A stretch of DNA of 57,942 nucleotides from a virus (taxonomy: Duplodnaviria > Caudoviricetes), in IMG/VR virus record IMGVR_UViG_3300010398_000012, positions 1 to 57,942 of that record; one strand, written 5' to 3'. Below are positions 5,964 to 26,839 of the stretch, piece by piece. Position numbers and translations under genes: made by a program. The number at the start of each line of letters is the position of its first letter. Positions within the stretch are counted from its first letter, which is position 1. Below the pieces are notes generated by a model. It searched no databases, had not been told where the DNA came from, and worked only from the letters and a program-made list of their open reading frames with translations.

Positions 5964-7565
5964 ATGCGGCTGTGGGACCGTGCCCTCTCCCGGCAACAGC
6001 CCATCGGCTCCGGGTACAACGAACAGATGTATTCGGGGGCGGAGTACGTCGGCACCTGGGACTCCGGGCAGGGCGGCGTCACCGAATCAGCGGCGGCGGG
6101 GGTGGTGCGGACCGCCCGCGAGGTGATGTCGTCCAACGGGATCGTGTTCGCGGTGATGGCGCTGCGGATGTCGCTGTTCTCCGAGGCCCGGTTCCGGTTC
6201 CAGGCGCTGACCGACCAGCACACGTTCGGGGATACGTCGCTGGCGCTGCTGGAGCATCCATGGCCGAACGCCGACTCCGGGGAGCTGCTGTCCCGCGCCC
6301 AGCAGGATGGGTCGATGGGGAACTTCTATGCGCGGCGGGCGACCCCGGCGGACCCGGCGGAGGGCGGCACCCGGATCGTGCAGATGCGCCCGGAGAACGT
6401 GATCATCGTGTCCCGGGAGATCACCGACGACGGGGGCCGGGTGTGGCGGGAGCCGGCCGGGTACCTGGAGATGCGGCCCGGCGGGCATGAGCCGCAGGTA
6501 TTCACCGTCGATGAGGTGGCGCATTTTTCCCCGGTCCCGGATCCGTCCGCGCGGTGGCGGGGCATGTCGTGGCTGACGCCGATCCTGCGGGAGGTGTACG
6601 CCGACCAGGCGCTGACCCGGTACAAGTCGTTCCACCTGGACAACGGGGCCATGCCTGGCCTGACGATCAAGTACAGCATGAAGCTGTCGGAGAAGACGAT
6701 CAACGGGCTGCGGAAGCGGATCCGGGCGAAGTACGGCGGCCCGGACAACGCCGGGAACGTGCTGGTTTTGGATGAGGGCGCGGACGCGATGGTGACCGGG
6801 TCCACGCTGGAGCAGTTGCAGGCCGACGCGATCACCAAGGCGGGGGAGCGGCGGGTGTGCGCGGCCGGCGGCCCGGGACTGCTGGAGATCTGCGGGTTTG
6901 AGCCGGGCACCTACCAGGACGCGATCCGCCAGTTCGGTGACCTGTGGGCCAGGCCGCAGTGGCGGATGCTGTGTGCCGCTTTGGAGCACCTGATTCCCGG
7001 GCCGGCGCAGAACCCGGCCGTGCCGGTCCGCCTGTGGTATGACGTGTCCGGGATCGCCGCGTTGCGGGAGGGGGAGCTGTCCCGGGCGCAGTCGTACCTG
7101 GTGAAGGCGCAGGGGCTGGCGTCCACGATTCAGGCGGGGATGACCCGGGAGTCGGCCATCAAGGCCGCCGACGCGGGGGACCTGTCGTTGCTGGCCCCGG
7201 ACCCGAACGCGCCACCTCCCGGGGTGTCTGGGCGGGCGACCGAGCGGGTCGGGCAGGGCGGTTTCGACGCCGGCCCCGGGCCCGGCGGGCAGCAGGCCGG
7301 CTCCGGTGGCACGCTGCCGGGGACGCCGCAGCCACCGACCGGCGGCCCCGCCGGGGGCGGTGCGGGGCGGGCACCGCAGGCGGGCAGGCCGCAGCAGTTG
7401 CCGGGGGTGGGGCGGCCGAATCTGCCGAACGCGCTGCCGGCGAAGGCGGGGGCGGGGACTCCCGCCCTGCCGGGCGGCGCACGCGGTTCCAATGGCCGGG
7501 GGCGGGTGTCGCGGGCTGAGGTGGAGGAGTGGCCGCCGTGGTGGGCCGGCTACACCGGGGGGTGA
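5964..7565 (+). CDS. HK97-type portal protein with long Gly/Pro-rich C-terminal tail
   Basis: LLEHPWPN, GNFY, EVAHF, RGMSWL, NGAMPG, GPDNAGNVLVLDEG; GGAGGTGA RBS. Confidence 0.92.
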   Translation: MRLWDRALSRQQPIGSGYNEQMYSGAEYVGTWDSGQGGVTESAAAGVVRTAREVMSSNGIVFAVMALRMSLFSEARFRFQALTDQHTFGDTSLALLEHPWPNADSGELLSRAQQDGSMGNFYARRATPADPAEGGTRIVQMRPENVIIVSREITDDGGRVWREPAGYLEMRPGGHEPQVFTVDEVAHFSPVPDPSARWRGMSWLTPILREVYADQALTRYKSFHLDNGAMPGLTIKYSMKLSEKTINGLRKRIRAKYGGPDNAGNVLVLDEGADAMVTGSTLEQLQADAITKAGERRVCAAGGPGLLEICGFEPGTYQDAIRQFGDLWARPQWRMLCAALEHLIPGPAQNPAVPVRLWYDVSGIAALREGELSRAQSYLVKAQGLASTIQAGMTRESAIKAADAGDLSLLAPDPNAPPPGVSGRATERVGQGGFDAGPGPGGQQAGSGGTLPGTPQPPTGGPAGGGAGRAPQAGRPQQLPGVGRPNLPNALPAKAGAGTPALPGGARGSNGRGRVSRAEVEEWPPWWAGYTGG

Positions 7566-7825
7566 GCTGGGGCGGGCCGCCGCCGTCGTGGCGGGATGTG
7601 GAGTTGTGGATCGCGCTGCTGCTGATCGCGCTGGGCATGGTGGCGTTGGCGTGCCTGGTTTTGGGTGCGGCGATCGGGTCGGGGTGGCGGCTGTTCATGC
7701 TGACCAGCGGCCGGGCGCGGCTGGCCCGGCCGGTCCGGGTGCGGCCGGTGCCGGGGGTGTGGCCGGGCAGTGAGACGACGAACCCGCTGCCGGTGGTGGA
7801 GCTGCCGCCGGGGGAGCGGCAGTGA
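7562..7825 (+). CDS. Small membrane protein
   Basis: GTGA overlap with portal stop; LWIALLLIALGMVALACLVLGAAI. Confidence 0.6.
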   Translation: MSWGGPPPSWRDVELWIALLLIALGMVALACLVLGAAIGSGWRLFMLTSGRARLARPVRVRPVPGVWPGSETTNPLPVVELPPGERQ

Positions 7826-9393
7826 GGGCGGTGCGGGGGCTGGGCTGGGACCCGGCCGGTTTGGACGTGCTGCGCGCGGTGGGGTGGACGCCGTCGCTGC
7901 ATCCGCGCGGGCCGCACGGGAAGTTCGCCCGCAAACCCGGCCTGCCCGCCGGCGGGCCGGGGCGGCCGGGGCGGATTGGCCAGCAGCTAGAGGTCATGCT
8001 GGCGGAGGTGGACCGCCGGTACGCCAAGGGTTACCCCGACGACCCGATGCAGAATGCCCAGTTCCTGCACGAGCAGATGCGCAAGGCCGTCAAGGAGATG
8101 GCGGACGGTAACCCGTACGCGGCGGGGGCCGCGCTGGGGCAGGTGGAGTACCGGGCCCGGGAGGCCGGCCTGGACAGCCTGGCGGACCGGGCGCACATGC
8201 TCCAGGCAGCCCCCGGGCTGGGTGTCTTGGCGAAACCGGAGGCGCCGGGTGAGGTGGCCGACCTGGCTGACAAGGGCCAGGCCGTGCTGATGCAGATGTC
8301 CGGCAGCGACCTGTCCCGGTTCAACGGGCAGGTGTACGTGGGGGACGACCCGTCGTGGGTGGGGATGATGGGCTGGGACGGGCGGATGGGCCTGGACCGG
8401 GGGACCACCAATGCGCTGGCCGAGGCGGCCAACGGGGAGCCGGTCAAGTCGGTGGAACCGTTCACCACGCTGCTGCACGAGCTGCTGCACGCGGCGGGCG
8501 GCACCGACGCCACCGCGCAGGCGGATGGCCGGTCGTACATGGAGGGAGTGAACGGGAAGGCGATCGAGGAGGGGTTCACCGAGCTGGGGTCGCGGCTGGA
8601 CGCGGCCGAGTTCACCCGCCGCCTGGGCGTGGGGGATCTGCCGACGCCGGTCCTGGCCCGCGACCCGGCGACCGGCGGCGCGATCGACAATCCGGCGTGG
8701 GACAAGGCCAAGTCCTCACTGGCGGGGCACCTGATCGCGCTGCACACGGCGCTGACGGAGGACCGGTTTCACGCACCCGGCGACCATGCCGCGCACAATA
8801 AGGCGATCGGGGCGGTGGAGGAGGCGTCACGGCTGCTCCGCGACGATGTCCTGTTCGCCTCCGATGACGCGCTGCGGATGGCCCAGCGGGTGTGGTCGGA
8901 GGACCCGGCGGTGAAGACCGCGCTGGACGGGGCACGGCACGCTTTGGACCGGGCCCGGCAGGTCCCGGCCGCCAAGCATCGGACGGTGGCCGAGGAGCTG
9001 GCCGAGGAGGCGAGCCCATCCCGGTTGCGGAACGGCGTGGGAGTGTCGTACCCGGAGTGGGTGCGGAACGCCCAAGCATGGTCGGAGGCCATCGCCAAGA
9101 TGGAACGCAAGGCCGGGCTGCTGCGCAAGCAGACCCTCGCCGCGCGGGCGGCGGACCTGGCCCGCGAGGTCGCCTATGCGGGGACCCGGGACAAGTCGGC
9201 GGTGCTGGCGGCGCAGTTGCTGCGGGCGGCGGCGGTGACCGACTCGGGGCGGGAGATGGAGAACGGGGAGACGCTGACCGCGTACACGCGGCGGAACGTG
9301 GTGTCGTACTGGCTGAGCGCGGGAACCCGGGCGGCCGATCAGGTGGCTACCCAGGTGGGGCAGTTGCGGAGGTGGCTTGATGCCGGCACGTGA
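7822..9393 (+). CDS. Zincin-like metallopeptidase with N-terminal WTPSLHPRGPHGKF tag (putative head cargo)
   Basis: LLHELLHAAG (HEXXH) followed by IEEGFTE; GTGA coupling. Confidence 0.75.
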   Translation: MRAVRGLGWDPAGLDVLRAVGWTPSLHPRGPHGKFARKPGLPAGGPGRPGRIGQQLEVMLAEVDRRYAKGYPDDPMQNAQFLHEQMRKAVKEMADGNPYAAGAALGQVEYRAREAGLDSLADRAHMLQAAPGLGVLAKPEAPGEVADLADKGQAVLMQMSGSDLSRFNGQVYVGDDPSWVGMMGWDGRMGLDRGTTNALAEAANGEPVKSVEPFTTLLHELLHAAGGTDATAQADGRSYMEGVNGKAIEEGFTELGSRLDAAEFTRRLGVGDLPTPVLARDPATGGAIDNPAWDKAKSSLAGHLIALHTALTEDRFHAPGDHAAHNKAIGAVEEASRLLRDDVLFASDDALRMAQRVWSEDPAVKTALDGARHALDRARQVPAAKHRTVAEELAEEASPSRLRNGVGVSYPEWVRNAQAWSEAIAKMERKAGLLRKQTLAARAADLAREVAYAGTRDKSAVLAAQLLRAAAVTDSGREMENGETLTAYTRRNVVSYWLSAGTRAADQVATQVGQLRRWLDAGT

Positions 9394-9583
9394 TCCGGTG
9401 GCGGCGGCGCAGGCGATCCTGGCGTGGGCGGAGGAGGACCCCATGGCGCGGTCGGTGGAGGCGCAGGCGCGGGTGCGGAACCTGGCCGGCAAGCTGGCCG
9501 AGGTGCCGCCGGGGGTTTTGGACGTGGGGCACGTTTTGGCGTCGATGGCGGACGCGGCGCAGTTCCTGGACGCGCAACCGTGA
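9377..9583 (+). CDS. Small helical protein, possible partner or inhibitor of the peptidase
   Basis: GGAGGTGG RBS; overlaps the peptidase stop and the next start. Confidence 0.6.
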   Translation: MMPARDPVAAAQAILAWAEEDPMARSVEAQARVRNLAGKLAEVPPGVLDVGHVLASMADAAQFLDAQP

Positions 9584-12500
9584 CCGCGTCCCGAGCGGCG
9601 GTCGCGGGACATCATGTGCCCGGCACCGCGACGGATTGGCGGCACGGCTGGCAGCCGCTGTCGTTCACCGCCGCCAAGGCGAAGTTCCACCAGAAGATCC
9701 CACCGTACTGGCACGCCCCGCTCCAGGACCGCCCGGACCGCCGGTCGGGGAAGATGGTCCACGGCGACTGGCACGAAGGCCACCAGGCCGTCTCCCCCGC
9801 GCCGATAGGGGTGCTGGGCACCGAACGGGCCCGGTATGTGTCGGTGAAGGGGCAGCGGCACAAGCACCTGGTGCGGGGGTCGTGGTCGGACCCGTGGTGG
9901 ATGACCCAGCCGGGCGGCGGGTGGGCGGTGTCGCAGCGGTGGCAGCACAAGGCGCAGACCGGGTACGAGTGGCGCGGCACCAAGGGGTCCCGGACGTTCA
10001 GCATTCCGGCGGCCGATGAGCGGGTGCTCACGCCGGTGGACGCGACGGGCAACCCGCTGCACGGCGGGGAGACCACGGCGGTGGGGAAGCACACGCTGCC
10101 GGTGCTGTCGGCGGCGGTGGCGGACGCGGAGACGAAAGCGAAGCTGACCGGGGCGCCGCAGTACGTGACCCAGGGCTACGGCGGTGGGCAGTGGACGGTC
10201 AGCGGGGAGCGGCCGAGGGTGTTCGGCGGGGACCATTACGTGGTGACCCCGGACGGCAAGTGGGCCCGGGATTCCACCTCCTACCGGGGTGGGCGGACGC
10301 CGCTGAAGGGGGCTCCGGTGCACAACCTGACAGGGCCCCGCGCAGGGGAGGTGGCGCGGGCGGGGACGTTCGATGAGGCCAAGCACCCGCGCGGCTACCA
10401 CGGTCGGTGGGCGCATGAGGGTGCCGGGAAGGGGCTGCCGTTCTCCCGGTCCGGCGGCACCGTCTCCTACCACGGGTCCTTGGGTATCGACCGCAAGGAC
10501 ATGCCGCAACTGTCGGGGCTGGTGAACGGCCAGTACGTGCCGACTGCGCACATGCTGCCCAAGTTCCTGGACTACCTGCGGTCGCGGGGCATCGCCGCGC
10601 AGGAGACCACGATCCCGGCGGCGAAGCTGCACCCGACCCAGACCACCGGCGACACCCCGGCGATCCGGAAGATCGCGGACGCCCTGAAGTCCGGCGAGTA
10701 CGAGGGGAAGCGGATCACCGTTTCGCAGGACAACAGGGTGCTGGACGGGCACCACAACTGGGCCGGGCTGCTGCTGGCCAACTCCGAGGGCCACAAGGGT
10801 GACCAAAAGGTGCTTCAGGTGGGGCTGCCGGCGCGGGAGCTGCTGGCAGAGATGCGGGCGTTTGCCAAGCGGGAGGGGATCGCCTCGCGTCAGACCGGGG
10901 AGCACGCCAACCCGCAGTACGCGGCCCGGATGGAGGCCGCCGAGCTGGTGGCGGCGCTGGCCGCCGGCCCGGGACTGGCCCGCAGCGCGGCCCTGGCTGC
11001 CGCTGCCAGCCTGGACGGGGGGACAGCGGGTGACTGGGACCGGGGCCAGGGCCAGGCCGTTACGGGCCGTCCTGCGGTCGCCCAGGGGTTGACGTGGGAG
11101 CCGGGCGAATCGGCGGCGCTGGCCGTGCTGGCCGTGCTGGTGCGGGCGTTCAACCCGGGCGAGGCGCGGGACTTCCGGGGCAAGTGGACCCGCCGTCCCG
11201 GCGGCGGCAACTTCCTGTTCAGCGGGCCGCCCGGCGGGCAGGAGCACGCCAGGGCGATGGAGGCACTGGCCCGCGACCTAGACCACGAGCCCGGCCAGTC
11301 CGAGACCGCCCAGACGCTGCGGCTGGCCATCCACGCGATGATGCGCCGCGACCTGGCCGCCGCCCGCCGGCACATCGACGGGGCGATCTACAACGACCAG
11401 GTCCAGTCCGGCGGGGCGCACCGCCCGGAGCTGGAGCAGATCAAGGCATCCCTGGCCAAGGTGCCCAAGGGGTCGGTGAAAGAGCCCCGCCGGCCGCTGG
11501 GCAAGGCACTGGACCCGGCCCTGTCAGCCCAGTTGCAGCACCTCCTTGGCGCGGGCCGGCCGGGGTATCACCCGTCCGGACTGCTGACGCCGGGAGTGGT
11601 CGGGGAGTACGCGGGCCGGGCCTACAATCCGCGTGAGCTGCGCGGCGTGCACGGCCGGTGGGCCAGGTCCGGCGCCGGCGCGGCGGCTGGGCCGGCGGGG
11701 CCGTCGCCGCTGGAGCTGGCCGCCATGGTCAGCGACCTGTCCGCCCAGTTGGAGCGGGCGCGGGCGGACCTGGGCCGCGACCAGCAGGCCATCGTGGACC
11801 GGGTCCGGGCCGAGATGCGGGCCGAGCAGGCCGCGTTCCGCCGGATCCACGCCACGGCCGGGGAGACCGCCGAGGGCGCCCAGCACCGCAAGGATCAGAT
11901 GGTCAAGTCGGTCGTGAACGTGCTGGCCCTGGCGGCGGTGGCGCTGCTGACGATCGCCACGGCGGGGCTGGCGCTGCCGCCGCTGGTTATCGCGGGGATC
12001 TCGGTCGGGCCGCTGATCGGCGCCGAGGCGGCGCACGTCATCCACACCCGGGCGACCACGCGGCCGTCCAAGCTGCCGGTGTCGCCGGGTGTGATGCGGG
12101 CGGCCGGGGGATCGCCCCGGGACGCGGCAGCGGCGGCGCTGGTGCCGCTGGTGGCTGGGCTGCTGGGGCTGGGGGAGGAGCAGGCGCGGCAGGTGGCCGG
12201 GGAGCTGGTGGACCTGGCCCAGTCCGGCGGCGGGCAGGTGGCCCGGTTCGACCCGCGTGAGCTGCGCGACCCGCACGGCAAATGGACCCGGGGCGGCGGG
12301 GCGCTCGGCAAGGCCGCCAAGGCTGCCACCGGGGGGCTGGCCGCGTCCGCAGGCATCCGGGCGGAATCGTCGGGGAACGACTCGGTTGCCAAGCACATGC
12401 GGCCGGACGGCACCTGGGACCCGGCCCGGCAGAAGCTCCACGACCAGATCGTCTCCGACGCCCTCGCCGGGCACCATTCGCAGGCCAGCCCGGTGGCGAC

Positions 12501-13089
12501 GTTCCTGGGCGGCGGCACCGCATCGGGCAAGTCCACGGCGCTGGCTAGCGCCGCGCACAAGGACCAGGTGGTCATCGACTCGGATGCGATCAAGGGCCTG
12601 CTGCCGGACTACCAGCAGAAAGTGAAGGCTGGTGACCCGTCCGCTGCCGCGTACGCGCATGAGGAGTCCTCCTACCTGGCGAAGCGGATCCAGGCGGCGG
12701 CCATCGCGCGGAAGCTGAACTACCTGCTGGACGGCACCGGCGACGCCTCGTACGCGAAGATGGCCGCCAAGATCAAGGCCGCGCGGGACGGCGGGCACCG
12801 GGTGGACGCCAAGTATGTGACCGCCGCGACCGAGGAGGCGGTCCGCCGCGCGGAGGCCCGCGCCAAGGAAACGGGGCGGATGGTCCCCGAATCGGTGATC
12901 CGCAGCATTCACGCCGGGGTGTCGGAGGTGTTCCCCAAGCTGGTGGAGTCGGGGCTGCTGGACTCGGCGGAGCTGTGGGACACCAACGGGGCCAAGCCGC
13001 TGCTGGTCGGGTCGATGCCGCACGGCGGTAAATGGACGGTGAAGGACCAGGCGGCGTGGGACGCGTTCAAGGCCAAAGCGGCGACGTGA
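9580..13089 (+). CDS. Multidomain head-associated protein: ParB/Srx-like domain, membrane segment, C-terminal zeta-toxin-like P-loop kinase, four repeated tag motifs
   Basis: GTGA coupling at 9580; LHPTQ...ITVSQDNRVLDGHHNW; hydrophobic VLALAAVALLTIATAGLALPPLVIAGI; FLGGGTASGKST...IDSDAIK...HEESS...LLDGT...R.VP. Confidence 0.82.
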   Translation: MTASRAAVAGHHVPGTATDWRHGWQPLSFTAAKAKFHQKIPPYWHAPLQDRPDRRSGKMVHGDWHEGHQAVSPAPIGVLGTERARYVSVKGQRHKHLVRGSWSDPWWMTQPGGGWAVSQRWQHKAQTGYEWRGTKGSRTFSIPAADERVLTPVDATGNPLHGGETTAVGKHTLPVLSAAVADAETKAKLTGAPQYVTQGYGGGQWTVSGERPRVFGGDHYVVTPDGKWARDSTSYRGGRTPLKGAPVHNLTGPRAGEVARAGTFDEAKHPRGYHGRWAHEGAGKGLPFSRSGGTVSYHGSLGIDRKDMPQLSGLVNGQYVPTAHMLPKFLDYLRSRGIAAQETTIPAAKLHPTQTTGDTPAIRKIADALKSGEYEGKRITVSQDNRVLDGHHNWAGLLLANSEGHKGDQKVLQVGLPARELLAEMRAFAKREGIASRQTGEHANPQYAARMEAAELVAALAAGPGLARSAALAAAASLDGGTAGDWDRGQGQAVTGRPAVAQGLTWEPGESAALAVLAVLVRAFNPGEARDFRGKWTRRPGGGNFLFSGPPGGQEHARAMEALARDLDHEPGQSETAQTLRLAIHAMMRRDLAAARRHIDGAIYNDQVQSGGAHRPELEQIKASLAKVPKGSVKEPRRPLGKALDPALSAQLQHLLGAGRPGYHPSGLLTPGVVGEYAGRAYNPRELRGVHGRWARSGAGAAAGPAGPSPLELAAMVSDLSAQLERARADLGRDQQAIVDRVRAEMRAEQAAFRRIHATAGETAEGAQHRKDQMVKSVVNVLALAAVALLTIATAGLALPPLVIAGISVGPLIGAEAAHVIHTRATTRPSKLPVSPGVMRAAGGSPRDAAAAALVPLVAGLLGLGEEQARQVAGELVDLAQSGGGQVARFDPRELRDPHGKWTRGGGALGKAAKAATGGLAASAGIRAESSGNDSVAKHMRPDGTWDPARQKLHDQIVSDALAGHHSQASPVATFLGGGTASGKSTALASAAHKDQVVIDSDAIKGLLPDYQQKVKAGDPSAAAYAHEESSYLAKRIQAAAIARKLNYLLDGTGDASYAKMAAKIKAARDGGHRVDAKYVTAATEEAVRRAEARAKETGRMVPESVIRSIHAGVSEVFPKLVESGLLDSAELWDTNGAKPLLVGSMPHGGKWTVKDQAAWDAFKAKAAT

Positions 13090-13097
13090 CCAGGAAC

Positions 13098-13103
13098 TAT
13101 ACT
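13098..13103 (+). promoter_or_regulatory. Putative -10 box for the small downstream gene
   Basis: TATACT in AT-rich spacer, overlapping an ACCAG/CTGGT inverted repeat. Confidence 0.45.
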
Positions 13104-13131
13104 GGTGGTGTGGCAGGGGAGGTGAGGGCAC

Positions 13132-13338
13132 ATGGCAGACCAGCGGGAACTCCTTGAGGAGCTGCGGAGCGGTATCGGTGAGATCGCCACCGCGCTGGAG
13201 GTCGCCGCCGCGACCGGCGCGGATTTCGCTGCCGCGCATGTGCCTGACACGCCGGCCAACCGGGCCCTATTCGCCAAGATCAAGGCCGAGATCGCCGCGC
13301 TCCCAGCGGGAGTCGTGGCGGACGTGCCGCGCGAATAG
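13132..13338 (+). CDS. Small protein, putative immunity/antitoxin to the zeta-like domain
   Basis: GGGGAGGTGA RBS; directly after toxin-like C-terminus; own -10 box and hairpin. Confidence 0.65.
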   Translation: MADQRELLEELRSGIGEIATALEVAAATGADFAAAHVPDTPANRALFAKIKAEIAALPAGVVADVPRE

Positions 13339-13349
13339 CCCCCTGAACT

Positions 13350-13384
13350 GCTGAGCCCCCGGGCGGTTGCCCCGGGGGCTCAGC
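13350..13384 (+). terminator. 14-bp hairpin, probable terminator
   Basis: GCTGAGCCCCCGGG-7nt-CCCGGGGGCTCAGC. Confidence 0.65.
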
Positions 13385-13418
13385 CATGCCCGCACAACCT
13401 ACCGGAGGTGGACCGGCG

Positions 13419-15176
13419 ATGACGCACACCCCCGAGGCGGAGCGGGGCTGGCGGGAGGCGCTGCACCCGCGTGTGCCTGGCGGCAAGCACGGCGGCGGCG
13501 AGTTCACCGGCAAAGGCGGCAGCGGGATCAGTGCGGCCGGGGTGTCCGCGTCGATCCACGCCCACCCCGAGCGGCACAGCCTGGAGGCGGTGGCGGCCGA
13601 GGCGGACCGGCTGGACCGCGACGGCTCCCCCGGCGCGAAGGCCACGGCGGCCCGGTTGCGCCGGTACCTGGAGGGGGAGCGGTGGCGGCGGCAAAACCGG
13701 CTCCCGGTCGGTGCGGGCCCGGTGGCGGCCGGCCCGGGGGGCAGCGAGTTCGCGCGGCGGACGGCCGAGACGGCGACCGCGTCCACCGTCCACGAGCCGA
13801 TCGGCAAACCCGGCGGCCCCGGCCTGTGGAAGCACAAGGACTGGCAGTTGCCGGCGTATATCCAGCATGTCCGCAACGACCTGATGGAAGCCGGGCACCC
13901 CGAGTCGCAGGCCACCGGGATGGCCGTGGGGATCGTGAAGAACTGGGCCGCCGGCCATGACGGCAAGGGCCATGCGGTGCACCCGGATGTGCAGGCGGCG
14001 GCGGCCAGAAACATAGCCCAGTGGGAAGCCATGAAGGCCCGCACAGGACACGGAGCGAGGCGATCAACAGTGACCGACACCGAGACCTACGACGGCGACG
14101 GGCTGGACGCGTCCTGGGACGGCGACCTGTCCGACCTGCCGGACCTGACCGGCCTGGGCGTGGCCGACTTTGAGGCCGCCGACCCCGGCGAGCCGGGGGA
14201 GGTGTCCCGGGCGCTGCCCAAGCTGGGCTCCGGTGCCCGGTTCGCCAAGCTGAAGCAGGCGCTGGCCGGGAAGGGCATCCGCGACCCCGGCGCGCTGGCC
14301 GCGCACATCGGCCGCCGCAAGTACGGCAAGGCCCGGTTCCACGCGCTGGCTGCCAAGGCCCGCAAGAGCGGCAGCCCGGCGGCGTCGCGGACCGGGGAGC
14401 TGCTGCGGTACTACCCGCTGGAGGAGTGCCGGATCATGCGCGCCGCCGAAGGCGAAAGCTCGGGGCGGGTCGTGGAAGCCTACGCCGCCGTGTTCGACAC
14501 CCCAGCCGAGATCAACGACTCCGAGGGCCACTACGTGGAGACCATCCACCGGGCCGCGTTCGATGAGGTGCTGGAGGAGATCCGCCCGGAGCGGAACGGC
14601 GGCTACTGGCGGGTGGCGTGCCTGTTCAACCACGGGCTGACCGTGCACGGCTCGCCGGCGGAGCGGTTTTCCCTGCCAGCCGGGGTGACCCGGCACATCT
14701 CCGCTGAAGGGGCGGGGCTGCTGACCCGCACCGAATATGCGGCCACCCCGCTGGGGGAGGAACTGCTGGAGCTGGTGAACCTGGGCGCGCTGCGCACCCA
14801 GAGCTTCACCGGCGGAATCGTCCGGTCCGACCCGATGCTGCGCGGGCCAGGGGACCGGTACCGGCGCGGCCCGGGGGGCGTGTTGCAGCGCGTCCGCCGG
14901 CTCGTGCTGGGGCTGCGGGAATACGGGCTGACCCCGTTCGCGGCCTATACGGGCGCTGAGGTGCTGGGCGTCCGCATGCAGCTCCCTGACGCCCTCTATG
15001 AGGACGGCTGGGACGAATACCCGGACAGTGACGCGGATGCTCTCCCCGTGGACGGCGGCGGGGACGGCGGCGGCGGCTCCCCCGAAGCGGAGCCCGTGAT
15101 GCGGTCCACCGGCAACAGGCTGTACCGGCTGCGCGCCCAGGAGCTGCTGGAACAGCACGGCATCAGGCTGGACTAG
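13419..15176 (+). CDS. HK97-type prohead protease with long modular N-terminal extension
   Basis: GGAGGTGG RBS before ATG 13419; VEAYAAVFD, ETIHRAAF, LFNHG (His), QSFTG (Ser), LREYGLTPFAAY; immediately upstream of MCP. Confidence 0.88.
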   Translation: MTHTPEAERGWREALHPRVPGGKHGGGEFTGKGGSGISAAGVSASIHAHPERHSLEAVAAEADRLDRDGSPGAKATAARLRRYLEGERWRRQNRLPVGAGPVAAGPGGSEFARRTAETATASTVHEPIGKPGGPGLWKHKDWQLPAYIQHVRNDLMEAGHPESQATGMAVGIVKNWAAGHDGKGHAVHPDVQAAAARNIAQWEAMKARTGHGARRSTVTDTETYDGDGLDASWDGDLSDLPDLTGLGVADFEAADPGEPGEVSRALPKLGSGARFAKLKQALAGKGIRDPGALAAHIGRRKYGKARFHALAAKARKSGSPAASRTGELLRYYPLEECRIMRAAEGESSGRVVEAYAAVFDTPAEINDSEGHYVETIHRAAFDEVLEEIRPERNGGYWRVACLFNHGLTVHGSPAERFSLPAGVTRHISAEGAGLLTRTEYAATPLGEELLELVNLGALRTQSFTGGIVRSDPMLRGPGDRYRRGPGGVLQRVRRLVLGLREYGLTPFAAYTGAEVLGVRMQLPDALYEDGWDEYPDSDADALPVDGGGDGGGGSPEAEPVMRSTGNRLYRLRAQELLEQHGIRLD

Positions 15177-15245
15177 CCCGGCCTGGCAACCACATCACAG
15201 GGACGCCCCGCCCCACGGGGCCACGGGTTTGAGGAGGAAACCCCC

Positions 15246-16799
15246 ATGCGTCTTTCGGAGATGCAAACCCGCCAGGACGCGATCCGGTCCGAGCTGGCGG
15301 CCATGGACGCCGACCCCGAGACCACCGAGGAACGCGACGGCAACATTCGGGACACCCTCATTGAGGAGTGGGAGCGGCTGGAGGAAGACAAGAAGCCGAT
15401 CCTGGCCCGGATGGAGAAAATCCAGATCATCAAGCGCAACGCGGCCACGGGCGGTGCCCCGGCCGACCCGCCCGACACCGGCGACGGCGACGGGTCGGGG
15501 TTCTCGCCCGGGTTCACCGGGTTCCGCGACACCGCCGGCAACGGCAACGGCGGCGGGAGCGCGGCGCGGCGGTGGTCCGGGACCCCGGAGTTCATGATGC
15601 GGCTGGACCCGTTCGCGGACCTGGACAAGGTCCGGGATGGGCTGGTGCGCGGGTCGGACATGGTGGCCCGGTCGATGTCGCTGGTGGAGGTGCACCACCG
15701 GCGCGGGATGCTGCTCCCGGAGCGGGCGGAGGAGGCGTGCCGCAAGTTCCAGTCCGATCCGATGATCGCGCGGCATGCGCTGCTCACCGGCTACGGCGAG
15801 TACATCGACGCGTTTCGGTCGTACCTGAACGATCCGATGGGTGAGGGGCTGCGCGCCGCCCAGCGTTCGCTCACTCTGGGTACAGCATCAGGTGGGTTTT
15901 TGCTACCGTACGTGCTCGACCCCACCATAGTGCTCACAAGCGACGGGAGCACTAACCCGTACCGGCAGATGTCAGAAATCAAAACAACCACATCCAACGC
16001 GTGGCAGGGTGTCAACTCCGCCGGCGTGCAGATGGGCTGGCTGGACGAAGGCGGCCAGGCCACCGACAACACCCCCGCGACCGGCCAGATTCAGATTTTC
16101 GCCAAGAAGGCCGCCGCGTGGGTGATCGGCTCGTTTGAGTCGGTCGGGGACACCAATTTCGCGGACCAGCTGCCGCGCCTGCTGGCGGATGCCAAGGACA
16201 TCCTGGAGGAGCAGGCTTTTGCGAGGGGCACCGGCGGCACCGGCAACGCCGGGCAGCCGCTGGGCATCATCAACACCCTGGGCACCGCGCAGCGGGTCCT
16301 GGCCGGCGGGTCCTCGGTGGCGGCGTTCACCGGCACCGCCGGCGGCGCTAACGGCGGCGGCCTGGCCGACGTGCTCGCCCTCAACGGGGCGCTCGGGCCG
16401 AGGTTCCGCATGTCCGCGAATGTCGGCTGGGTGATGACGATCACCAACATCAACCGGATCCGGTCGATCGACCAGTACGGCGGCGCCGCGTTCCTGGCCA
16501 ACCTGGGGCAGGGGCAGCCGACCACGCTGCTGGACAAGCAGCTCCGCGAGTCGCCGTCGCTGACCCAGACCCCCGGCACCGGCACGGCCCTGGTCGCCGC
16601 GTCGGCGGTGTTCGGGGACTGGTCGAAGTTCTATGTGGTCGATCGCATCGGGTCCACGATGCTGTTCGACCCCCTCATCAAGAGCGCCGGCACCGCCAAC
16701 ATGCCCTCTGGCAACCAAGGCTGGTTCTACTACTGGCGCGTGGGAAGCGGCGCGGCCACACCCAACGCGTTCCGGTGGACCACCGGCGGTACCGCCTGA
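15246..16799 (+). CDS. HK97-fold major capsid protein with about 207-aa delta/scaffold domain
   Basis: GAGGAGG RBS; N-terminal coiled coil; QR|SLTLGTASGGFLLP; W.DEG; GTG..GQPLGI; VFGDWSKFYVVDRIG; PNAFR. Confidence 0.95.
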   Translation: MRLSEMQTRQDAIRSELAAMDADPETTEERDGNIRDTLIEEWERLEEDKKPILARMEKIQIIKRNAATGGAPADPPDTGDGDGSGFSPGFTGFRDTAGNGNGGGSAARRWSGTPEFMMRLDPFADLDKVRDGLVRGSDMVARSMSLVEVHHRRGMLLPERAEEACRKFQSDPMIARHALLTGYGEYIDAFRSYLNDPMGEGLRAAQRSLTLGTASGGFLLPYVLDPTIVLTSDGSTNPYRQMSEIKTTTSNAWQGVNSAGVQMGWLDEGGQATDNTPATGQIQIFAKKAAAWVIGSFESVGDTNFADQLPRLLADAKDILEEQAFARGTGGTGNAGQPLGIINTLGTAQRVLAGGSSVAAFTGTAGGANGGGLADVLALNGALGPRFRMSANVGWVMTITNINRIRSIDQYGGAAFLANLGQGQPTTLLDKQLRESPSLTQTPGTGTALVAASAVFGDWSKFYVVDRIGSTMLFDPLIKSAGTANMPSGNQGWFYYWRVGSGAATPNAFRWTTGGTA

Positions 16800-23482: not shown

Positions 23483-26400
23483 ATGCGTGGCACCGGGGCG
23501 AACATCTGGCACGGGCCGGGCGTGCCGGTTGTGCCGACCGCCGGCGGGGTCACCTTGGCCGTGACCGCCACCCAGGGCGGTTCCACGGCTAACGGGCTGC
23601 TGCTGCGCGTGTACGTCCTCACCGGCGCGGCCGTTGCCGCGTCGCAAACCGGCGCGGCGACCCACAGCTTCCCTACCGGCACGACCTTGGCCAACTCGGT
23701 GACCGCCACCGCCGGGTCCAACGTGTACGGCGCGTGCGTGCACGCCGGGTCCGCCGCGACTGCGACCGGCGGCAGCAACGCCACGGTTGTGGATGACGTG
23801 CAAGACACCTCGCACAGCCTGCGTTATGTGTCGTGGCACGCGCTGGGGGTCGCCGGCGGCGCGGTCTCTTACGGGTTCACGATGGGCTCCACGCAGACGG
23901 GGCGGGTGGAGAACGCGGAAGTGCTCGTGTCCGGCACCCTGGCCGAGAACGCCGCCGCCCCGCCAGCGGCGTCCACCACGACGGCGACCACGGTATCGAC
24001 GGCGTCCTTTACCGCACCCGCTAACTCGCTGCTGGTGGCGGTGGTCGCGTCGAACGGCGGCGCGAGCGCGGTGACGATGGCCCTGTCGGACTCGGCCGGC
24101 CTGACCTGGACACAAAAGGACAGCAGCAGCCCTGGCGCCGCGAACGGGTACGTCGGCGTGTGGGTCGCTGACGTGGTCAGCGCGGTGGCCGCCCCGGCCG
24201 GGGCGGCCACCGGGTCCGGGCAGGCAGCGGATGGCGTGGCCGCCGCAGGCGTGGCAGCAGGTGCAGCGCCGGGCGCGGGCGCGGCGGCGGGCGCAGTTGC
24301 CGCTGTCGCCGTAGCCGCTGGGGTGGCGGCCGGTGCGGGCGCCGCGCCAGCCGCCACGGCCGCCGCTGGGGTAAACGCGGGTGTCGCGGCCGGGTCCGGG
24401 CAGGCCCCGGCCGCGCGGGTGCCGCAGGCCGAGCCGCCCGCAGCCACGGGCCTGGGTGCCGCGCCGGCGGCATCGCCGGCGGTCACCGCCAGTGCGGGTG
24501 CCGCCGCCGGGTCGGGGCAGGCCGCCGCCGCGATCGTCGCGGCCGGGGTGAACACCGCCCCCGCCGCCGGCGTGGGTGCCGCAGGCCCGGTGAGCGCCCC
24601 CGCCGCCGCCTGGTCACTGGCCCAGCAGGTCACCGGGTCTACGGCGGCAGCGAATAACACGCCGCAGATAACTTTCACCCCGGCGTCCGGGGCACCGCTG
24701 GTCACCGCGATCTTCACCCGATCCGGTGGCCAGTCCACCGGGGCGATGACCTCGGTCACCGACTCCGCCGGGAACACGTGGACCGCCGGGCCCAAGGGCG
24801 CGGTGTCGGGCGGGACGAACACCCGCGTCGAGCTGTGGTATGTGATCGCGCCGGCGGCGTTCACCTGGCTGCAAGGCAACTCGGGCACCAGCCAGGACTA
24901 TTCGTGGAACGTGCAGGAGTGGGCGGGCGCGACGGGGGTCACGTTCGACGCCGGGTCGGCCACCTATTCGGCCACCGCGTCCTCCACGACGTGTGACACC
25001 CCGTCCACTGCCGCCGCCGGCCCCACCGACCTGGCTATTGCCGCCGCCGCCTACGGGCAGGCGACGGGGACGCTGAACAGTGCCGGGTGGACGGCGCTGA
25101 CCAATTTCGACATGTCCACCACCCGGTCCGGGCGGGCCGCCTACGACGCGGGCACGTCCGGTGCGGGCCTGGCGTCGGGAAGCTATTTCGCGGAGTGGCT
25201 GCTGGGCAGCGCGCACGCCTGCGGGGTGCTGACCGCCACGTTCAAGGGGACGCTGGCTGCCGCTGCTAGCCCGGCCGCCGGGGCGGCGGGTGGCCTGGGC
25301 GCGGCACCGGGCCCGGTGGTGGCGGTTGCGCCGGTCGCGGGTGTCGCGGCTGGCGCGGGGCTGGGCCCAGCGGCTGCCGCAGCGGGCAGCGTCAACGCGG
25401 GGGCAGCCGCCGGGACCGGGATCGCGGCGAATGCCACCGTCTCCACCGTCACGGCGGCCACCGCGAACGCCGGGGTCGCGGCCGGGCTGGGCGCGGCGAA
25501 TCCCGCTGTACCAGCGGCCACGGCCCCGGCCGGTGCCAGCGCGGGACTCGGCCTGGCGGCGGCCCCGCAGACGGCGGCCAGTGTCCCCGCCGGGGTCGCG
25601 GCCGGGCTCGGGCTGGCGGCCCCGCCGACCCCAGCGGTTCGCCCGGCGGCGGGCGCAGCAGCGGGTACGGGCACCGCCACGGCCCCCGCCTCCCTCGCCG
25701 CGACGGTAAACGCCGGCGTGGCCTCCGGGGCCGGGGCCGCGCCGGGTGCCACCATCTCCACGGCCACCGCCGGCACCGCGAACGCCGGGGTGGCCGCCGG
25801 GACGGGGACCGCGCCGGGTGCCGCGCCTGCCCTGGGCACAAGCGCGGGCGTGGCACCCGGGTCCGGCGTGGCCCTGGGCGCGGGTGCCACCCTCACAGCG
25901 GGCGCGGGTGTCGCGGCCGGGACGGGCATCGCCCCGAATGCGCGGGTGCCGCAGGCCGAGCCGCCAGCGGCAGCCGGCGCCGGGACCGCGCCCCAGCCGG
26001 CCGCCGCGCTCGGCGCGAACGCGGGCCCCGGCGGCGGGCTGGGGCAAGCGCCCGCCCCGTCCACCGCGCTCACGGTCCGCGCCGGGATCGCGGCCGGGCT
26101 GGGTGCCGCCCCGAACGCCACGGTTTCGACGGCCACCGCCGGGACCGCAAACGCCGGGGTCGCGGCCGGCCTGGGGACGGCCCCGGCGGCAGCGGTCGCG
26201 GTCGCGGCGAACGCCGGCCCGGGTCCCGGCGGCGGCGCGGCCGTACAGGCCGCCGTGGGGGTCACCGTCGCCGCAGGCGTCGCGGCGGGGACGGGGACGG
26301 CGGCGGCGCCGGTTATCGCCGCCGCGCCGAACGCGGGTGTGGCGGCCGGGCTGGGGGCCAGCTCCCCGGCGACGGCAGCACCTGGTGCCCTCGCCGGCGG

Positions 26401-26839
26401 GGCTGCCGGGGCTGGCGTGGCGGCCGGCCCCACCGTGTCCACCTTGCCCCGCACGTTCGCCCCGGCCGGGGTGGCGGCGGGGACGGGCATCGCCGCACCG
26501 CCGGGGCTGGCCCTGGCCGGCAACGCGTTCCCCACCGCCGCCGCCGGGCTGGGCGCGGCCCCGGCGGCCGGCGGAACCCCCGGGAGGGCGGCACCCGCCG
26601 CCGCCGCTGCCGGGACCGGCCTGGCCCTGGCCCCGGCGGTGGTGCTGGCCTGCCTGGCCAGGGCCCAGGCCGCCGCCGGCCTGGGGGCGTGCGGCGCGGC
26701 GGCACACGGGTTCACCCCGGTTGTGTTCGCGGTGTCGGTGGCCGGGGGGCAGACGGGACCGGCAGCGGTCGCCTCCGGGGCCGTGGCGGTCGCCGCCGCC
26801 GCCGGCGGCGGCATCCCGGGGAAACAGGAAGGGGCGTAA
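23483..26839 (+). CDS. 1118-aa Ala/Gly-rich repetitive fibre protein with two globular modules
   Basis: Many roughly 20-aa AGVAAGxGxA repeats flanking globular regions at about 23540-24175 and 24607-25250. Confidence 0.8.
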   Translation: MRGTGANIWHGPGVPVVPTAGGVTLAVTATQGGSTANGLLLRVYVLTGAAVAASQTGAATHSFPTGTTLANSVTATAGSNVYGACVHAGSAATATGGSNATVVDDVQDTSHSLRYVSWHALGVAGGAVSYGFTMGSTQTGRVENAEVLVSGTLAENAAAPPAASTTTATTVSTASFTAPANSLLVAVVASNGGASAVTMALSDSAGLTWTQKDSSSPGAANGYVGVWVADVVSAVAAPAGAATGSGQAADGVAAAGVAAGAAPGAGAAAGAVAAVAVAAGVAAGAGAAPAATAAAGVNAGVAAGSGQAPAARVPQAEPPAATGLGAAPAASPAVTASAGAAAGSGQAAAAIVAAGVNTAPAAGVGAAGPVSAPAAAWSLAQQVTGSTAAANNTPQITFTPASGAPLVTAIFTRSGGQSTGAMTSVTDSAGNTWTAGPKGAVSGGTNTRVELWYVIAPAAFTWLQGNSGTSQDYSWNVQEWAGATGVTFDAGSATYSATASSTTCDTPSTAAAGPTDLAIAAAAYGQATGTLNSAGWTALTNFDMSTTRSGRAAYDAGTSGAGLASGSYFAEWLLGSAHACGVLTATFKGTLAAAASPAAGAAGGLGAAPGPVVAVAPVAGVAAGAGLGPAAAAAGSVNAGAAAGTGIAANATVSTVTAATANAGVAAGLGAANPAVPAATAPAGASAGLGLAAAPQTAASVPAGVAAGLGLAAPPTPAVRPAAGAAAGTGTATAPASLAATVNAGVASGAGAAPGATISTATAGTANAGVAAGTGTAPGAAPALGTSAGVAPGSGVALGAGATLTAGAGVAAGTGIAPNARVPQAEPPAAAGAGTAPQPAAALGANAGPGGGLGQAPAPSTALTVRAGIAAGLGAAPNATVSTATAGTANAGVAAGLGTAPAAAVAVAANAGPGPGGGAAVQAAVGVTVAAGVAAGTGTAAAPVIAAAPNAGVAAGLGASSPATAAPGALAGGAAGAGVAAGPTVSTLPRTFAPAGVAAGTGIAAPPGLALAGNAFPTAAAGLGAAPAAGGTPGRAAPAAAAAGTGLALAPAVVLACLARAQAAAGLGACGAAAHGFTPVVFAVSVAGGQTGPAAVASGAVAVAAAAGGGIPGKQEGA

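Follow-up and report, generated by a model that had tools for sequence, protein, structure and literature searches.

A recurrent peptide tag heads the portal-proximal cargo modules of a tailed virus and may mark where head cargo is cut and sorted

The window analyzed here is a stretch of 57,942 nucleotides of a tailed virus, in which three genes (encoding P0001, P0002 and P0003) are located between the gene of the portal protein and that of the major capsid protein. All three carry copies of a short peptide, referred to below as the tag, preceded by a leader with an Arg residue. The features of the locus are given below; a slash marks a cut or a presumed cut, and for each tag the match of an independent profile HMM is added.

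5964-7565, plus strand: portal protein P0005 (Pfam Phage_portal, 58.9 bits; phrog_12)
7822-9393, plus strand: P0001, tag-headed protein with a zincin-like metallopeptidase module (HExxH and EEGFTEL motifs)
7867-7926, plus strand: tag 1 with leader, VLR/AVGWTPSLHPRGPHGKF (translation; HMM match 7870-7941, 35.9 bits)
8476-8490, plus strand: HELLH (HExxH) motif, P0001 residues 219-223 (sequence motif)
9424-13089, plus strand: P0002, polyvalent cargo protein with four tags (Zeta_toxin and phrog_2859 matches)
9610-9657, plus strand: second N-terminal motif, HHVPGTATDWRHGWQP, heading module 0 of P0002 (regular expression)
10351-10410, plus strand: tag 2 with leader, VAR/AGTFDEAKHPRGYHGRW (translation; HMM match 10354-10428, 32.5 bits)
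10441-10923, plus strand: module 1, P0002 residues 340-500, with a DGHH motif (phrog_2859, E = 8e-16)
11137-11187, plus strand: tag 3 with leader, LVR/AFNPGEARDFRGKW (translation; HMM match 11143-11205, 12.7 bits)
11611-11661, plus strand: tag 4 with leader, AGR/AYNPRELRGVHGRW (translation; HMM match 11614-11679, 10.1 bits)
11899-11976, plus strand: hydrophobic stretch of module 3, P0002 residues ~826-851 (Kyte-Doolittle)
12238-12285, plus strand: tag 5 with leader, VAR/FDPRELRDPHGKW (translation; HMM match 12238-12303, 20.9 bits)
12472-12969, plus strand: Zeta-toxin-type kinase module, P0002 residues 1017-1182 (Pfam Zeta_toxin)
13386-15176, plus strand: P0003, tagged prohead-protease polyprotein of 596 aa (S78 domain; tag 6)
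13437-13505, plus strand: tag 6 (long-loop form) with leader, AER/GWREALHPRVPGGKHGGGEF (translation; HMM match 13437-13520, 13.1 bits)
13761-14060, plus strand: module X (HEPIGKPGGPGLW...GHDGKG), P0003 residues 126-225 (protease-family conservation)
14208-14210, plus strand: Arg275 in the conserved VSR-A...LGSGARF, candidate self-processing site (family motif)
14439-14987, plus strand: S78 (HK97-type) prohead serine protease domain, P0003 residues 352-534 (Pfam)
15102-15173, plus strand: C-terminal tail of the protease, VMR573/STGNRLY..., candidate capsid-targeting tail and self-cut (family motif)
15246-16799, plus strand: HK97-type major capsid protein P0004 with a predicted 207-residue delta domain (Pfam Phage_capsid)
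15864-15869, plus strand: predicted maturation cut R207/S208, AQR/SLTLGTASGG (HK97 alignment)

As the earlier note on this DNA had claimed, each tag is followed by a different domain. P0001, whose database gene call (P0041, 510 aa) begins 13 residues further in, had no match in Pfam, PHROG or NCBIfam. Its 107 homologs frequently contain it as one module within larger proteins, and H219, E220, H223 and E249/E250 (EEGFTEL) were invariant in an alignment of 18 sequences. The AlphaFold2 model of P0001 had a mean pLDDT of 81, with values below 50 for residues 1-48 (the tag region) and of 80-98 for the domain; a Foldseek search with this model gave no PDB match at E <= 1e-3, leaving the zincin fold unconfirmed.

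P0002 (longest ORF 1221 aa, database gene call P0008 1157 aa) combines a Zeta_toxin domain, a phrog_2859 module and at least two more tag-bounded modules, one module being named by Pfam. The Zeta module matched PF06414 at 93.5 bits (cut-off 22.3), with the P-loop GGGTASGKS in place, and also phrog_16619, a minor head protein; the domain and P-loop identify it as a predicted kinase of the Zeta toxin/AvrRxo1 type. Its assignment to the XopAJ subfamily was rejected (29.2 bits, cut-off 300). Module 1, for which no Pfam match was found, is common to virion proteins of F116-like podoviruses (tblastn, P0002 residues 340-480); a ParB/DdrB-like nature is a guess. In module 3, the 19-residue Kyte-Doolittle mean reached 2.45, and the stretch is likely a membrane helix. 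A regular expression for the second N-terminal motif matched six of the 288 stored proteins and none of 20 shuffles; P0206 begins with this motif and module 0. For P0003, the database gene call (P0169) covers the last 338 aa only. All 12 relatives with upstream sequence had module X, as did a locus devoid of S78 (L035). The modules of the window are proposed to be a zincin-type peptidase, a podovirus-shared module, a helical one, one with a membrane helix, a Zeta kinase and module X joined to S78.

Translation of the window placed the six tag peptides at the coordinates and in the frames listed, with a consensus of approximately [FWY]-D/N-E/P-x-K-H/Q-P-R-loop-G-[KRQ]-[FW] and an Arg residue one to four positions ahead of the first aromatic residue in all six. 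The HMM, trained on 119 unique tags from proteins of other viruses and containing no window sequence, was searched against all six frames, and its top six matches were exactly these tags, so that the six related tags in three portal-to-capsid genes were recovered independently. The seventh-best match scored 9.2 bits; among 20 shuffled windows, only two reached 10 bits or more. Tags 3 and 4 are borderline taken alone because of their lowest scores and these shuffles; both look like tag 5. The orthologs of tag 6 in relatives read TRGWREALHPR and RRGWREKLHPR. No extra tag was found by HMM or regular expression in a genuine coding frame of the window, and a regular-expression match at 23560 was rejected as a seventh tag, being out of frame with the ORF at 23483-26839. 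Chance likeness in a high-GC, Arg/Gly-rich proteome, to which the frequency of G[KR][FW] by itself in all six frames and the scores of tags 3 and 4 would point, is refuted for the six tags taken together by the independent HMM, with four tags at 13-36 bits and about 150 occurrences of the same motif in unrelated head proteins, and its probability is negligible.

The tag was also found by tblastn in Gordonia phages Ribeye (gp18) and Boopy (gp78), halovirus HHTV-1 (gp13) and mycobacteriophage Damien (gp10), always in the interval from the portal gene to that of the major capsid protein. A profile search revealed 56 tag proteins with up to six tags apiece, whose Pfam matches comprised Phage_Mu_F (9 of the 56, the tag often coming straight after the MuF domain), portal fusions, Zeta_toxin, ADP-ribosyltransferases, NUDIX, ParBc, RNA ligase, PG_binding and InPase/LPD1. 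The tag is therefore far more general than the earlier note had assumed, and occurs in polyvalent head proteins with links to MuF, portal or protease. An Arg and a Gly of its core were invariant from actinophages to the haloarchaeal virus, and a Gly-rich linker comes after it. No tags were found in three plasmid LPD1 proteins and four giant podovirus polyvalent proteins; the lack of the tag in these seven suggests that it is specific to portal-proximal head cargo. As no description of the tag was found in the literature, Pfam, NCBIfam or PDB, this real motif of a known kind of system is apparently undescribed.

The Arg that was reported to precede each tag had a narrower distribution. In 12 relatives sharing this capsid and S78 protease, the Arg led 37 of the 42 unique tags (0.30 expected, P = 4e-15), leaving five without it; it also led 16 of 20 tags in S78-family proteins, a set partly overlapping the relatives' loci. 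When the tags were located by regular expression and split by form, the Arg led 14 of 15 in form A, 16 of 18 in form B and 6 of 12 in form C; inspection by eye suggested that the expression had mis-anchored four of the misses in form C. In other lineages (128 tags), an Arg stood before the tag at background frequency (0.28 observed vs 0.25 expected), and the leaders were different ones, uniform within each protein. Judged from these sequences, the Arg is a feature of the lineage and not a component of the tag, so this part of the proposal held for the lineage of the window and failed outside it. Within the lineage, the leaders were common to three tag forms, which remain distinct. Since all relatives share the same capsid P1 residue, a joint change of leader and capsid site is not demonstrable among them; the clade counts as one observation, and its Arg could come from common descent. 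The other x-x-R/A and x-x-R/S sites supposed to mark module borders were at chance as a class, with 9, 24 and 7 R[AS] dipeptides in P0001-P0003, i.e., 40 against 39.8 expected from composition. As R-A and R-S are frequent inside modules, sequence alone cannot define a cut; accessibility would need to.

An HK97-type prohead protease had been anticipated at this locus, and PF04586 (Peptidase_S78) indeed matched P0003 at 27.7 bits (cut-off 21), as did phrog_80; the stricter NCBIfam equivalog TIGR01543 scored 30.3 bits, under its cut-off of 59. The VSR-A...LGSGARF motif was detected in 84 of 119 family proteins by an expression that demands the Arg, with Ala next in 72 of the 84. The R/S of the tail was present in 25 of 28 family proteins having a detected tail motif, and the capsid-targeting role of the tail is our assumption, carried over from HK97. 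All 12 relatives whose upstream sequence was available had S78. P0004 matched Phage_capsid (PF05065) at 89 bits, its residues 216-510 corresponding to profile positions 1-276, and position 2 of the same profile is residue 113 of HK97 gp5, which reads ..TFNK103/S104LGSDADSAGSL. With these anchors and a gapless offset, HK97 S104 therefore falls on S208, and the capsid site predicted earlier, AQR/SL, coincides exactly with K103/S104. The AQR/SL junction was invariant among the 12 relatives. By these alignments, P0004 is an HK97-type capsid protein with a delta domain, the predicted junction being homologous to K103/S104.

The alignment of the capsid R/S with K103/S104 makes it plausible that the prohead protease cuts at Arg, the leader Arg included. 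Two relatives' loci that comprise the whole portal-to-capsid interval bear on this. All five tags of L024 were Arg-led, and in L025 the portal was fused to a Zeta module via the Arg-led tag LSR/FDPSERRDFHGRW, a fusion from which release of the module would need a cut.

These observations suggest that the three genes would encode head-internal cargo made of swappable cassettes, each with a short lineage-specific leader, a conserved tag (15-25 residues, unstructured) that runs into a Gly-rich linker, and a module. The tag may be an old head-cargo signal, common to the portal-proximal cargo of many bacterial and archaeal tailed viruses, which in polyproteins would also mark the junctions of module exchange, as suggested by the breakpoints of P0006, P0007 and P0009 and the dispersal of modules among relatives' genes (both described below). 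The leader here ends in Arg(-Ala), with the same P1 residue as the capsid AQR/SL, from which we infer that the S78 protease cuts just before the tags. The modules would be freed inside the prohead with the tag at their new N-terminus, where it could serve retention, positioning or exit through the portal before a presumed injection. That the S78 protease cuts in this way and that the released modules are sorted, retained or exported via the tag is, in our estimate, somewhat short of an even chance. The cutting of polyproteins foreseen in the earlier note gains from the Arg-led tags and the L025 fusion and loses from two other observations. Tags without a cuttable leader stand at the extreme N-terminus of Damien gp10 (residue 2), P0020 (residue 4), and P0224 and P0278 (residue 3). 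Ten other tag-bearing virus records had no Pfam S78 or HK97-type capsid (PF05065) match, which excludes the prohead protease as the tag's general partner. Internal tags would need no address role where the polyprotein is already imported by an anchor (protease tail, portal fusion or MuF).

Three other explanations, about equally improbable, were considered. The tag may be the recognition or cut site of the P0001-type zincin-like metallopeptidase, the prohead protease being uninvolved. HExxH or HExxxH was present in 16 of 57 tag-bearing proteins, the P0001-family module is mostly tag-headed and frequent in tag-rich polyproteins, and zincin-like modules were proposed as processors of polyvalent proteins in the main text of Iyer et al. 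(PMC5512222). However, the complete intervals of L024 and L025 keep their tags and are devoid of a P0001-type module, the seven plasmid and podovirus proteins have related domains and zero tags, and the N-terminal tag of P0001 was modeled with low confidence, which leaves this role unlikely.

Alternatively, the tag may be only a flexible hinge or recombination junction, with the polyproteins acting uncut. P0006, P0007 and P0009 share their sequence as far as a tag and diverge immediately after it, modules 0, 2, 3 and Zeta are distributed over different genes among relatives, and the Gly-rich linker with low pLDDT would suit a hinge; the N4 virion RNA polymerase is packaged unprocessed, according to the same main text (PMC5512222). 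However, a hinge does not need a sequence that is conserved between actinophages and a haloarchaeal virus and keeps its Arg and Gly invariant, tags also head single-module proteins, in which there is nothing to join, and leaders common to three distinct tag forms fit selection better than gene conversion, so we give this explanation little credence. The third one, in which the tag acts during or after ejection as a leader for portal-tail passage or as a binder of nucleic acid or a host factor, with no part in encapsidation or proteolysis, would agree with tags coming after anchors (portal, MuF) that already secure encapsidation and with their basic, aromatic, unstructured and frequently N-terminal character. 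It is similarly hard to favor; hosts ranging from Actinobacteria to Haloarcula count against a host partner.

The presumed cutting before the tags by the S78 protease can be set against known systems. That polyvalent head proteins are processed by peptidases, packaged and injected was already predicted by Iyer, Burroughs, Anand, de Souza and Aravind (2017, J Bacteriol, PMC5512222), so the general idea is published. According to the main text of that study, these proteins are likewise multi-module effectors encoded among virion genes; they contain zincin-like metallopeptidase modules, and some end in an assemblin-like (prohead) peptidase. The domains of the tag proteins (ART-PolyVal, LPD1, InPase, RadC, ParBc, MuF) belong to their set; term searches of the main text revealed no mention of the tag, which the supplementary files could describe. 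P0002 joins at least two unrelated effector-type domains in one polypeptide, the cargo genes are flanked by those of the portal and the capsid protein, and the peptidases are represented by P0001 (HExxH and EEGFTEL) and the C-terminal S78 of P0003.

Portal-adjacent fusions of effectors to head proteins are likewise known from the MuF system (Zhang et al. 2012, PMC3482391) and from polymorphic toxins of the MuF kind in temperate phages (Jamet et al. 2017, BMC Biol, PMC5576092), a term search of the latter study giving no wording on motifs, linkers, pre-toxins, cleavage, junctions or demarcation. Whereas MuF-type cargo has a MuF domain, the cargo of the window lacks one, in line with the earlier note: no match to Phage_Mu_F (PF04233) with E <= 1 was obtained across all 57,942 bases, nor did Pfam scans detect this domain in P0001-P0003.

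Encapsulin cargo-loading peptides are short and unstructured, like the tag, and address diverse cargo into an HK97-fold shell; they are usually C-terminal, of other sequence and operate without proteolysis or ejection, and capsid binding by the tag is putative. Pre-toxin demarcation motifs (VENN of CdiA, PxxxxDPxGL of Rhs) are also short peptides at the border of exchanged modules, the Rhs one beside a proteolytic cut, but they occur once per protein in secreted rather than virion-packaged proteins, and their sequences are unrelated to the tag.

In T4, an N-terminal peptide sends the internal proteins (IPI-III, Alt) into the prohead, and the gp21 prohead protease cuts beside it at the same type of site as in head proteins. 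That signal stands before the cut and is removed, whereas the tag follows the presumed cut and would be retained; the T4 signal is restricted to one lineage and has no sequence likeness to the very widespread tag. A T4-type capsid targeting sequence was thus rejected for the tag, which comes after the presumed cut and in many copies is internal, although a similar way of working is possible. In HK97, the S78 protease gp4 strips the delta domain of gp5 at K103/S104, and here, too, an S78 gene directly precedes that of a capsid protein whose delta domain is long. Unlike in HK97, the protease is found as the C-terminal module of a tagged polyprotein, which has 596 aa here and reaches 939 aa in relatives, and the P1 residue of the capsid site also stands before the cargo tags.

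All six peptides listed in the earlier note were found in the translated window exactly as written. They share a motif of the approximate form [FWY]-D/N-E/P-x-K-H/Q-P-R-loop-G-[KRQ]-[FW], the tag, and lie in three proteins encoded between the portal and the capsid protein.

Head-module genes of the window
5964-7565, portal, Pfam Phage_portal
7822-9393, P0001, no family match
9424-13089, P0002, Zeta_toxin at residues 1017-1182 and phrog_2859 at residues 343-495
13386-15176, P0003, Peptidase_S78 (HK97-type prohead protease) at residues 352-475
15246-16799, P0004, HK97-type capsid protein, Phage_capsid from residue 216

To avoid circularity, a tag profile was built exclusively on 119 unique tags taken from other proteins, and all six reading frames of the window were scanned with it. 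Its six top matches were the six peptides (35.9, 32.5, 20.9, 13.1, 12.7 and 10.1 bits, the next scoring 9.2), and with the same profile two of 20 shuffled windows gave one match of 10 bits or more. Judged by these scores, the set of six is real, with tags 3 and 4 individually borderline. No tag beyond the six was found in the coding frames of the window; RDRHPGRF at 23560, considered as a seventh, was rejected as a regular-expression match out of frame.

The window spans an entire IMG/VR virus record (57,942 bases), linear, about 72% G+C, with a CheckV completeness estimate of 64%. Cultured phages provided no close DNA relative, the sole matches, in 12 mycobacteriophage records, covering 58 bases of the portal. 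As the earlier note had said, there is no MuF domain: none was detected across the entire record. Database gene calls in the window begin after the starts of the longest ORFs (7822, 9424 and 13386), giving 510 aa against 523 for P0041, 1157 against 1221 for P0008 and 338 against 596 for P0169. The short P0169 call is probably wrong, since it would remove tag 6 and the conserved module N-terminal to S78 (module X), both of which are conserved in homologs. An ORF of 1118 aa at 23483-26839, repetitive (AGVAAG.., GAAPxA..) and extremely rich in Ala, Gly, Pro and Thr, occupies the region of highest G+C (0.75-0.79) and possibly encodes a tail or fibre-like protein.

The tag was found well beyond this record. 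Tblastn with single tags, an insensitive search with such short queries (17, 2, 1 and 11 records), matched Gordonia phages Ribeye (gp18) and Boopy (gp78), the haloarchaeal virus HHTV-1 (gp13) and mycobacteriophage Damien, the genes matched being large and located between portal and capsid. When IMG/VR was scanned with a pattern, 120 stretches matched and eight of them were confirmed as loci, several with two to five tags per ORF. A profile search of 5.8 billion proteins, with 8,000 candidates scored, yielded 56 proteins; whole-protein scores of up to 179 bits with a profile of 42 columns imply many tag copies per protein. The stored set comprises 152 tags in 57 proteins, with a maximum of six per protein, and three forms recur, all of which occur in the window.

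Recurrent forms of the tag
[FW]DE[SA]KHPRGxxG[KR][FW]
[FY][DN]P[ND]QPRDxxG[KR]W
WDESKHPRVPxGxxxGGQF, the long-loop form

Pfam companions of the tags were Phage_Mu_F, ART-PolyVal, ADP-ribosyltransferases, LPD1, InPase, RadC, ParBc, 2'-5' RNA ligase, NUDIX, Zeta_toxin and PG_binding, and portal fusions were also present among the tag-bearing proteins. There is hardly any room for doubt that the motif and its distribution are real. The N-terminus of Damien gp10 (L013:6495-7268) reads MSFNPRQPRDRFGRW, and its tag lies at residue 2. Its annotation as a capsid maturation protease looks doubtful, because its 257 residues are rich in Lys, Arg, Ala and Gly and no Pfam S78 match was found in the Damien record.

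The order within a cassette is tag, Gly-rich stretch, module, and most modules behind the tags analysed here have no Pfam name. Many tags stand at the protein start (residue 4 in P0020, residue 10 in P0047, within the first 13 residues in P0079 and P0082), and leaderless tags at the extreme N-terminus indicate that the tag can function with no cut before it. In polyproteins, the tag often comes directly after an anchor domain, MuF or portal. Three database proteins (P0006, P0007 and P0009) are identical until a tag and diverge immediately past ...GRWT, and modules 0, 2, 3 and Zeta of P0002 are located in different genes among the relatives of the window; together, these place module exchange at the tags. 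In an AlphaFold2 model of P0001 built from an 18-sequence alignment (mean pLDDT 81), residues 1-48, including the tag, fell below pLDDT 50; modelled in this way, the tag is predicted to behave as a short linear motif. Module 3, whose homologs are among those relocated, contains a strongly hydrophobic segment at P0002 residues about 826-851 (window 11899-11976), a hint that this cargo module inserts into membranes. Module 0 is headed by another short N-terminal motif, HH[IV]PGT-x5-[RK]HG[WF]-x-P (residues 63-78, window 9610-9657), which was also detected in P0063, P0084, P0111, P0120 and P0206, giving 6/288 stored proteins and none in shuffles. It is often preceded by the same QxLxL leader as the tags and may be a second type of module-heading signal.

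The earlier note had proposed that an Arg precedes each tag as a protease site, and had counted an Arg frequency no higher than background in homologs among the refuting outcomes. By that measure the claim failed in general, and Arg exceeded expectation in the lineage of the window. Among 128 unique tags outside the window, Arg was present within four residues before the first aromatic at a frequency of 0.28 (0.25 expected), and Arg or Lys at 0.47 (0.43 expected). For the lineage itself, 14 relatives were collected via the capsid (~75% identity), 12 of which share the capsid junction ..[AMQS]AQR/SLTLGTAS, where the slash marks the predicted cut. In these 12, Arg preceded 37 of 42 unique tags, most commonly as R-A-[FWY], against an expected fraction of 0.30 (P = 4e-15). 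Of the S78-family proteins found via P0003 (234 matches, 120 of them listed), 119 were scanned, a set that overlaps that of the relatives; Arg preceded 16 of 20 unique tags in them, and two of the four tags lacking it lie at residue 3. In the lineage of the window, the Arg leader is common to all three tag forms, which favours selection on the leader over copying of whole tags. Elsewhere, the leader residues are consistent within a protein or lineage: h-V-G-A in locus L009 (P0006), A-D-F-S in P0020, Y-A in P0030 and [IL]-S-x-Q-x-L-E-L in an actinophage lineage. With a lineage-specific leader, the specificity of a protease could be deduced from sequence.

The capsid site AQR/SL predicted in the earlier note was supported by alignment. 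The BLASTP comparison of P0004 with HK97 gp5 was uninformative, so coordinates on the Pfam Phage_capsid profile were used, in which gp5 residue 113 falls at profile position 2 and P0004 residue 216 at position 1. The gp5 sequence around the site is ...TFNK103/S104LGSDADSAGSL, and the maturation cut is taken here to lie between K103 and S104. The gapless offset places S104 on S208 of P0004 (AQR207/S208LTLGTASGG), which makes Arg the predicted P1 residue at the capsid; the leaders, too, end in Arg. The capsids retrieved via the protease family (80 loci) kept Arg at the junction or at most three residues from it. These loci added only three tags outside the capsid group of the window, a yield partly due to the tag profile missing an RFNP-x-H...GGQF variant. 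As all relatives have a single capsid P1, leader and capsid site were not seen changing together.

Two enzymes encoded in the interval could be considered. The S78 domain with module X lies directly before the capsid gene in all 12 relatives with upstream sequence, whereas the P0001-type peptidase was found in only three relatives. It was absent from L024 and L025, both with the whole portal-to-capsid interval in view, and L024 nevertheless carries five Arg-led tags. In P0001, residues H219, E220, H223 and E249/E250 (EEGFTEL) are invariant across 18 sequences, a pattern that fits a zincin-type peptidase; the call depends on these motifs, as Foldseek of the model against PDB gave no match at E <= 1e-3. 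A word-based search with P0001 retrieved only itself and one fragment, and an exhaustive search was required to obtain 107 homologs of the globular part, which is frequently a module of larger proteins.

In the close relative L025 (2574-5321), the portal is fused to a Zeta toxin in a protein of 916 aa. The junction, ..LSR/FDPSERRDFHGRW, bears an Arg-led weak tag (7.1 bits), and a toxin fused to the portal would need to be cut free to exit the virion. Further Arg-Ala and Arg-Ser sites had been suggested as module borders. As a class they did not exceed chance (40 R[AS] dipeptides against 39.8 expected), whereas VSR275/A and VMR573/S are conserved in the protease family, the former within VSR-A...LGSGARF and R/S before the C-terminal STGNRLY tail in 25 of the 28 proteins with a recognised tail motif. 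Conservation in this polyprotein family is highest at P0003 residues about 270-340 (window 14190-14400; ..SR-A..LGSGARFxxLKxxLAxKG..DPGALAAxIGRxKYGKxxF). This stretch by itself accounted for the matches to about 40 far more distant IMG/VR loci (L074-L113), and its ...G-A-R-F resembles the second half of a tag. Module X (HEPIGKPGGPGLW...GHDGKG; window 13761-14060) is also present in L035:8052-10001, a 99%-complete record without a Pfam S78 match, where it is followed by a tag with the QIEL leader typical of that lineage.

The unit thus outlined would consist of leader, tag, linker and module. Because the leader in this lineage matches the predicted capsid site of S78, this protease would probably free the tag-headed modules inside the prohead; cutting by S78 at the Arg leaders is given just under an even chance. 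The tag core would be an ancient signal of portal-proximal head cargo, serving in retention, positioning at the portal or exit, and its role as a sorting or exit signal is possible, at somewhat less than even chances. The composite of a cargo signal with a lineage-specific leader cut by S78 in the prohead is held tentatively, somewhat below even. Cleavage, packaging and injection of the cargo are all predicted from sequence. A broader proposal, a universal portable head-cargo signal of bacterial and archaeal tailed viruses, in which each lineage's leader is the cut site of its own maturation protease, any module bearing a tag close to a free N-terminus would be retained at the portal and leave ahead of or along with the DNA, and polyproteins would be self-sorting cargo trains with wagons swappable at tags, is unlikely. 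Ten other tag-bearing records, two of them 94% and 99% complete, gave no match to PF04586 (S78) or PF05065, which argues that the tag itself is not tied to HK97-type maturation.

The comparison with known systems separates the tag from the cargo. Motif spellings entered in full-text literature searches returned unrelated papers only, Pfam, PHROGs and NCBIfam yielded no entry for the tag, and a PDB profile search gave one weak, unrelated match (E = 0.066). No description of it was found in the main text of Iyer et al. 2017 (PMC5512222), whose supplementary files might hold one, under the terms searched in Jamet et al. 2017 or in the passages on MuF in Zhang et al. 2012. Its Pfam companions match those that Iyer et al. 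give for polyvalent proteins. No tag was present in three LPD1 polyvalent proteins of plasmids, one adjoining Dot/Icm genes, or in four giant polyvalent proteins from podoviruses (Dartukuta, Y3, VT2-Sakai and F116), with best scores of 5.0 and 5.1 bits, respectively. On these few proteins, the tag seems specific to portal-adjacent head cargo rather than to polyvalent proteins or metallopeptidases generally. The overall system, polyvalent head cargo processed by a metallopeptidase or a C-terminal assemblin-like peptidase, is a published hypothesis (PMC5512222); a description of the tag was not found in the parts of the literature and the databases searched. Phages are known to load polyvalent and MuF-linked effectors into their heads. 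Recognition, cutting and release of such cargo could be approached through this motif by mutation, reporter loading and peptide pull-downs, since it is short, strongly conserved, heads each module, is confined to portal-proximal head cargo and spans bacterial and archaeal viruses. If it proved to serve in sorting or exit, it would account for the sharing of one delivery route by very different enzymes and be a tool for finding unannotated cargo.
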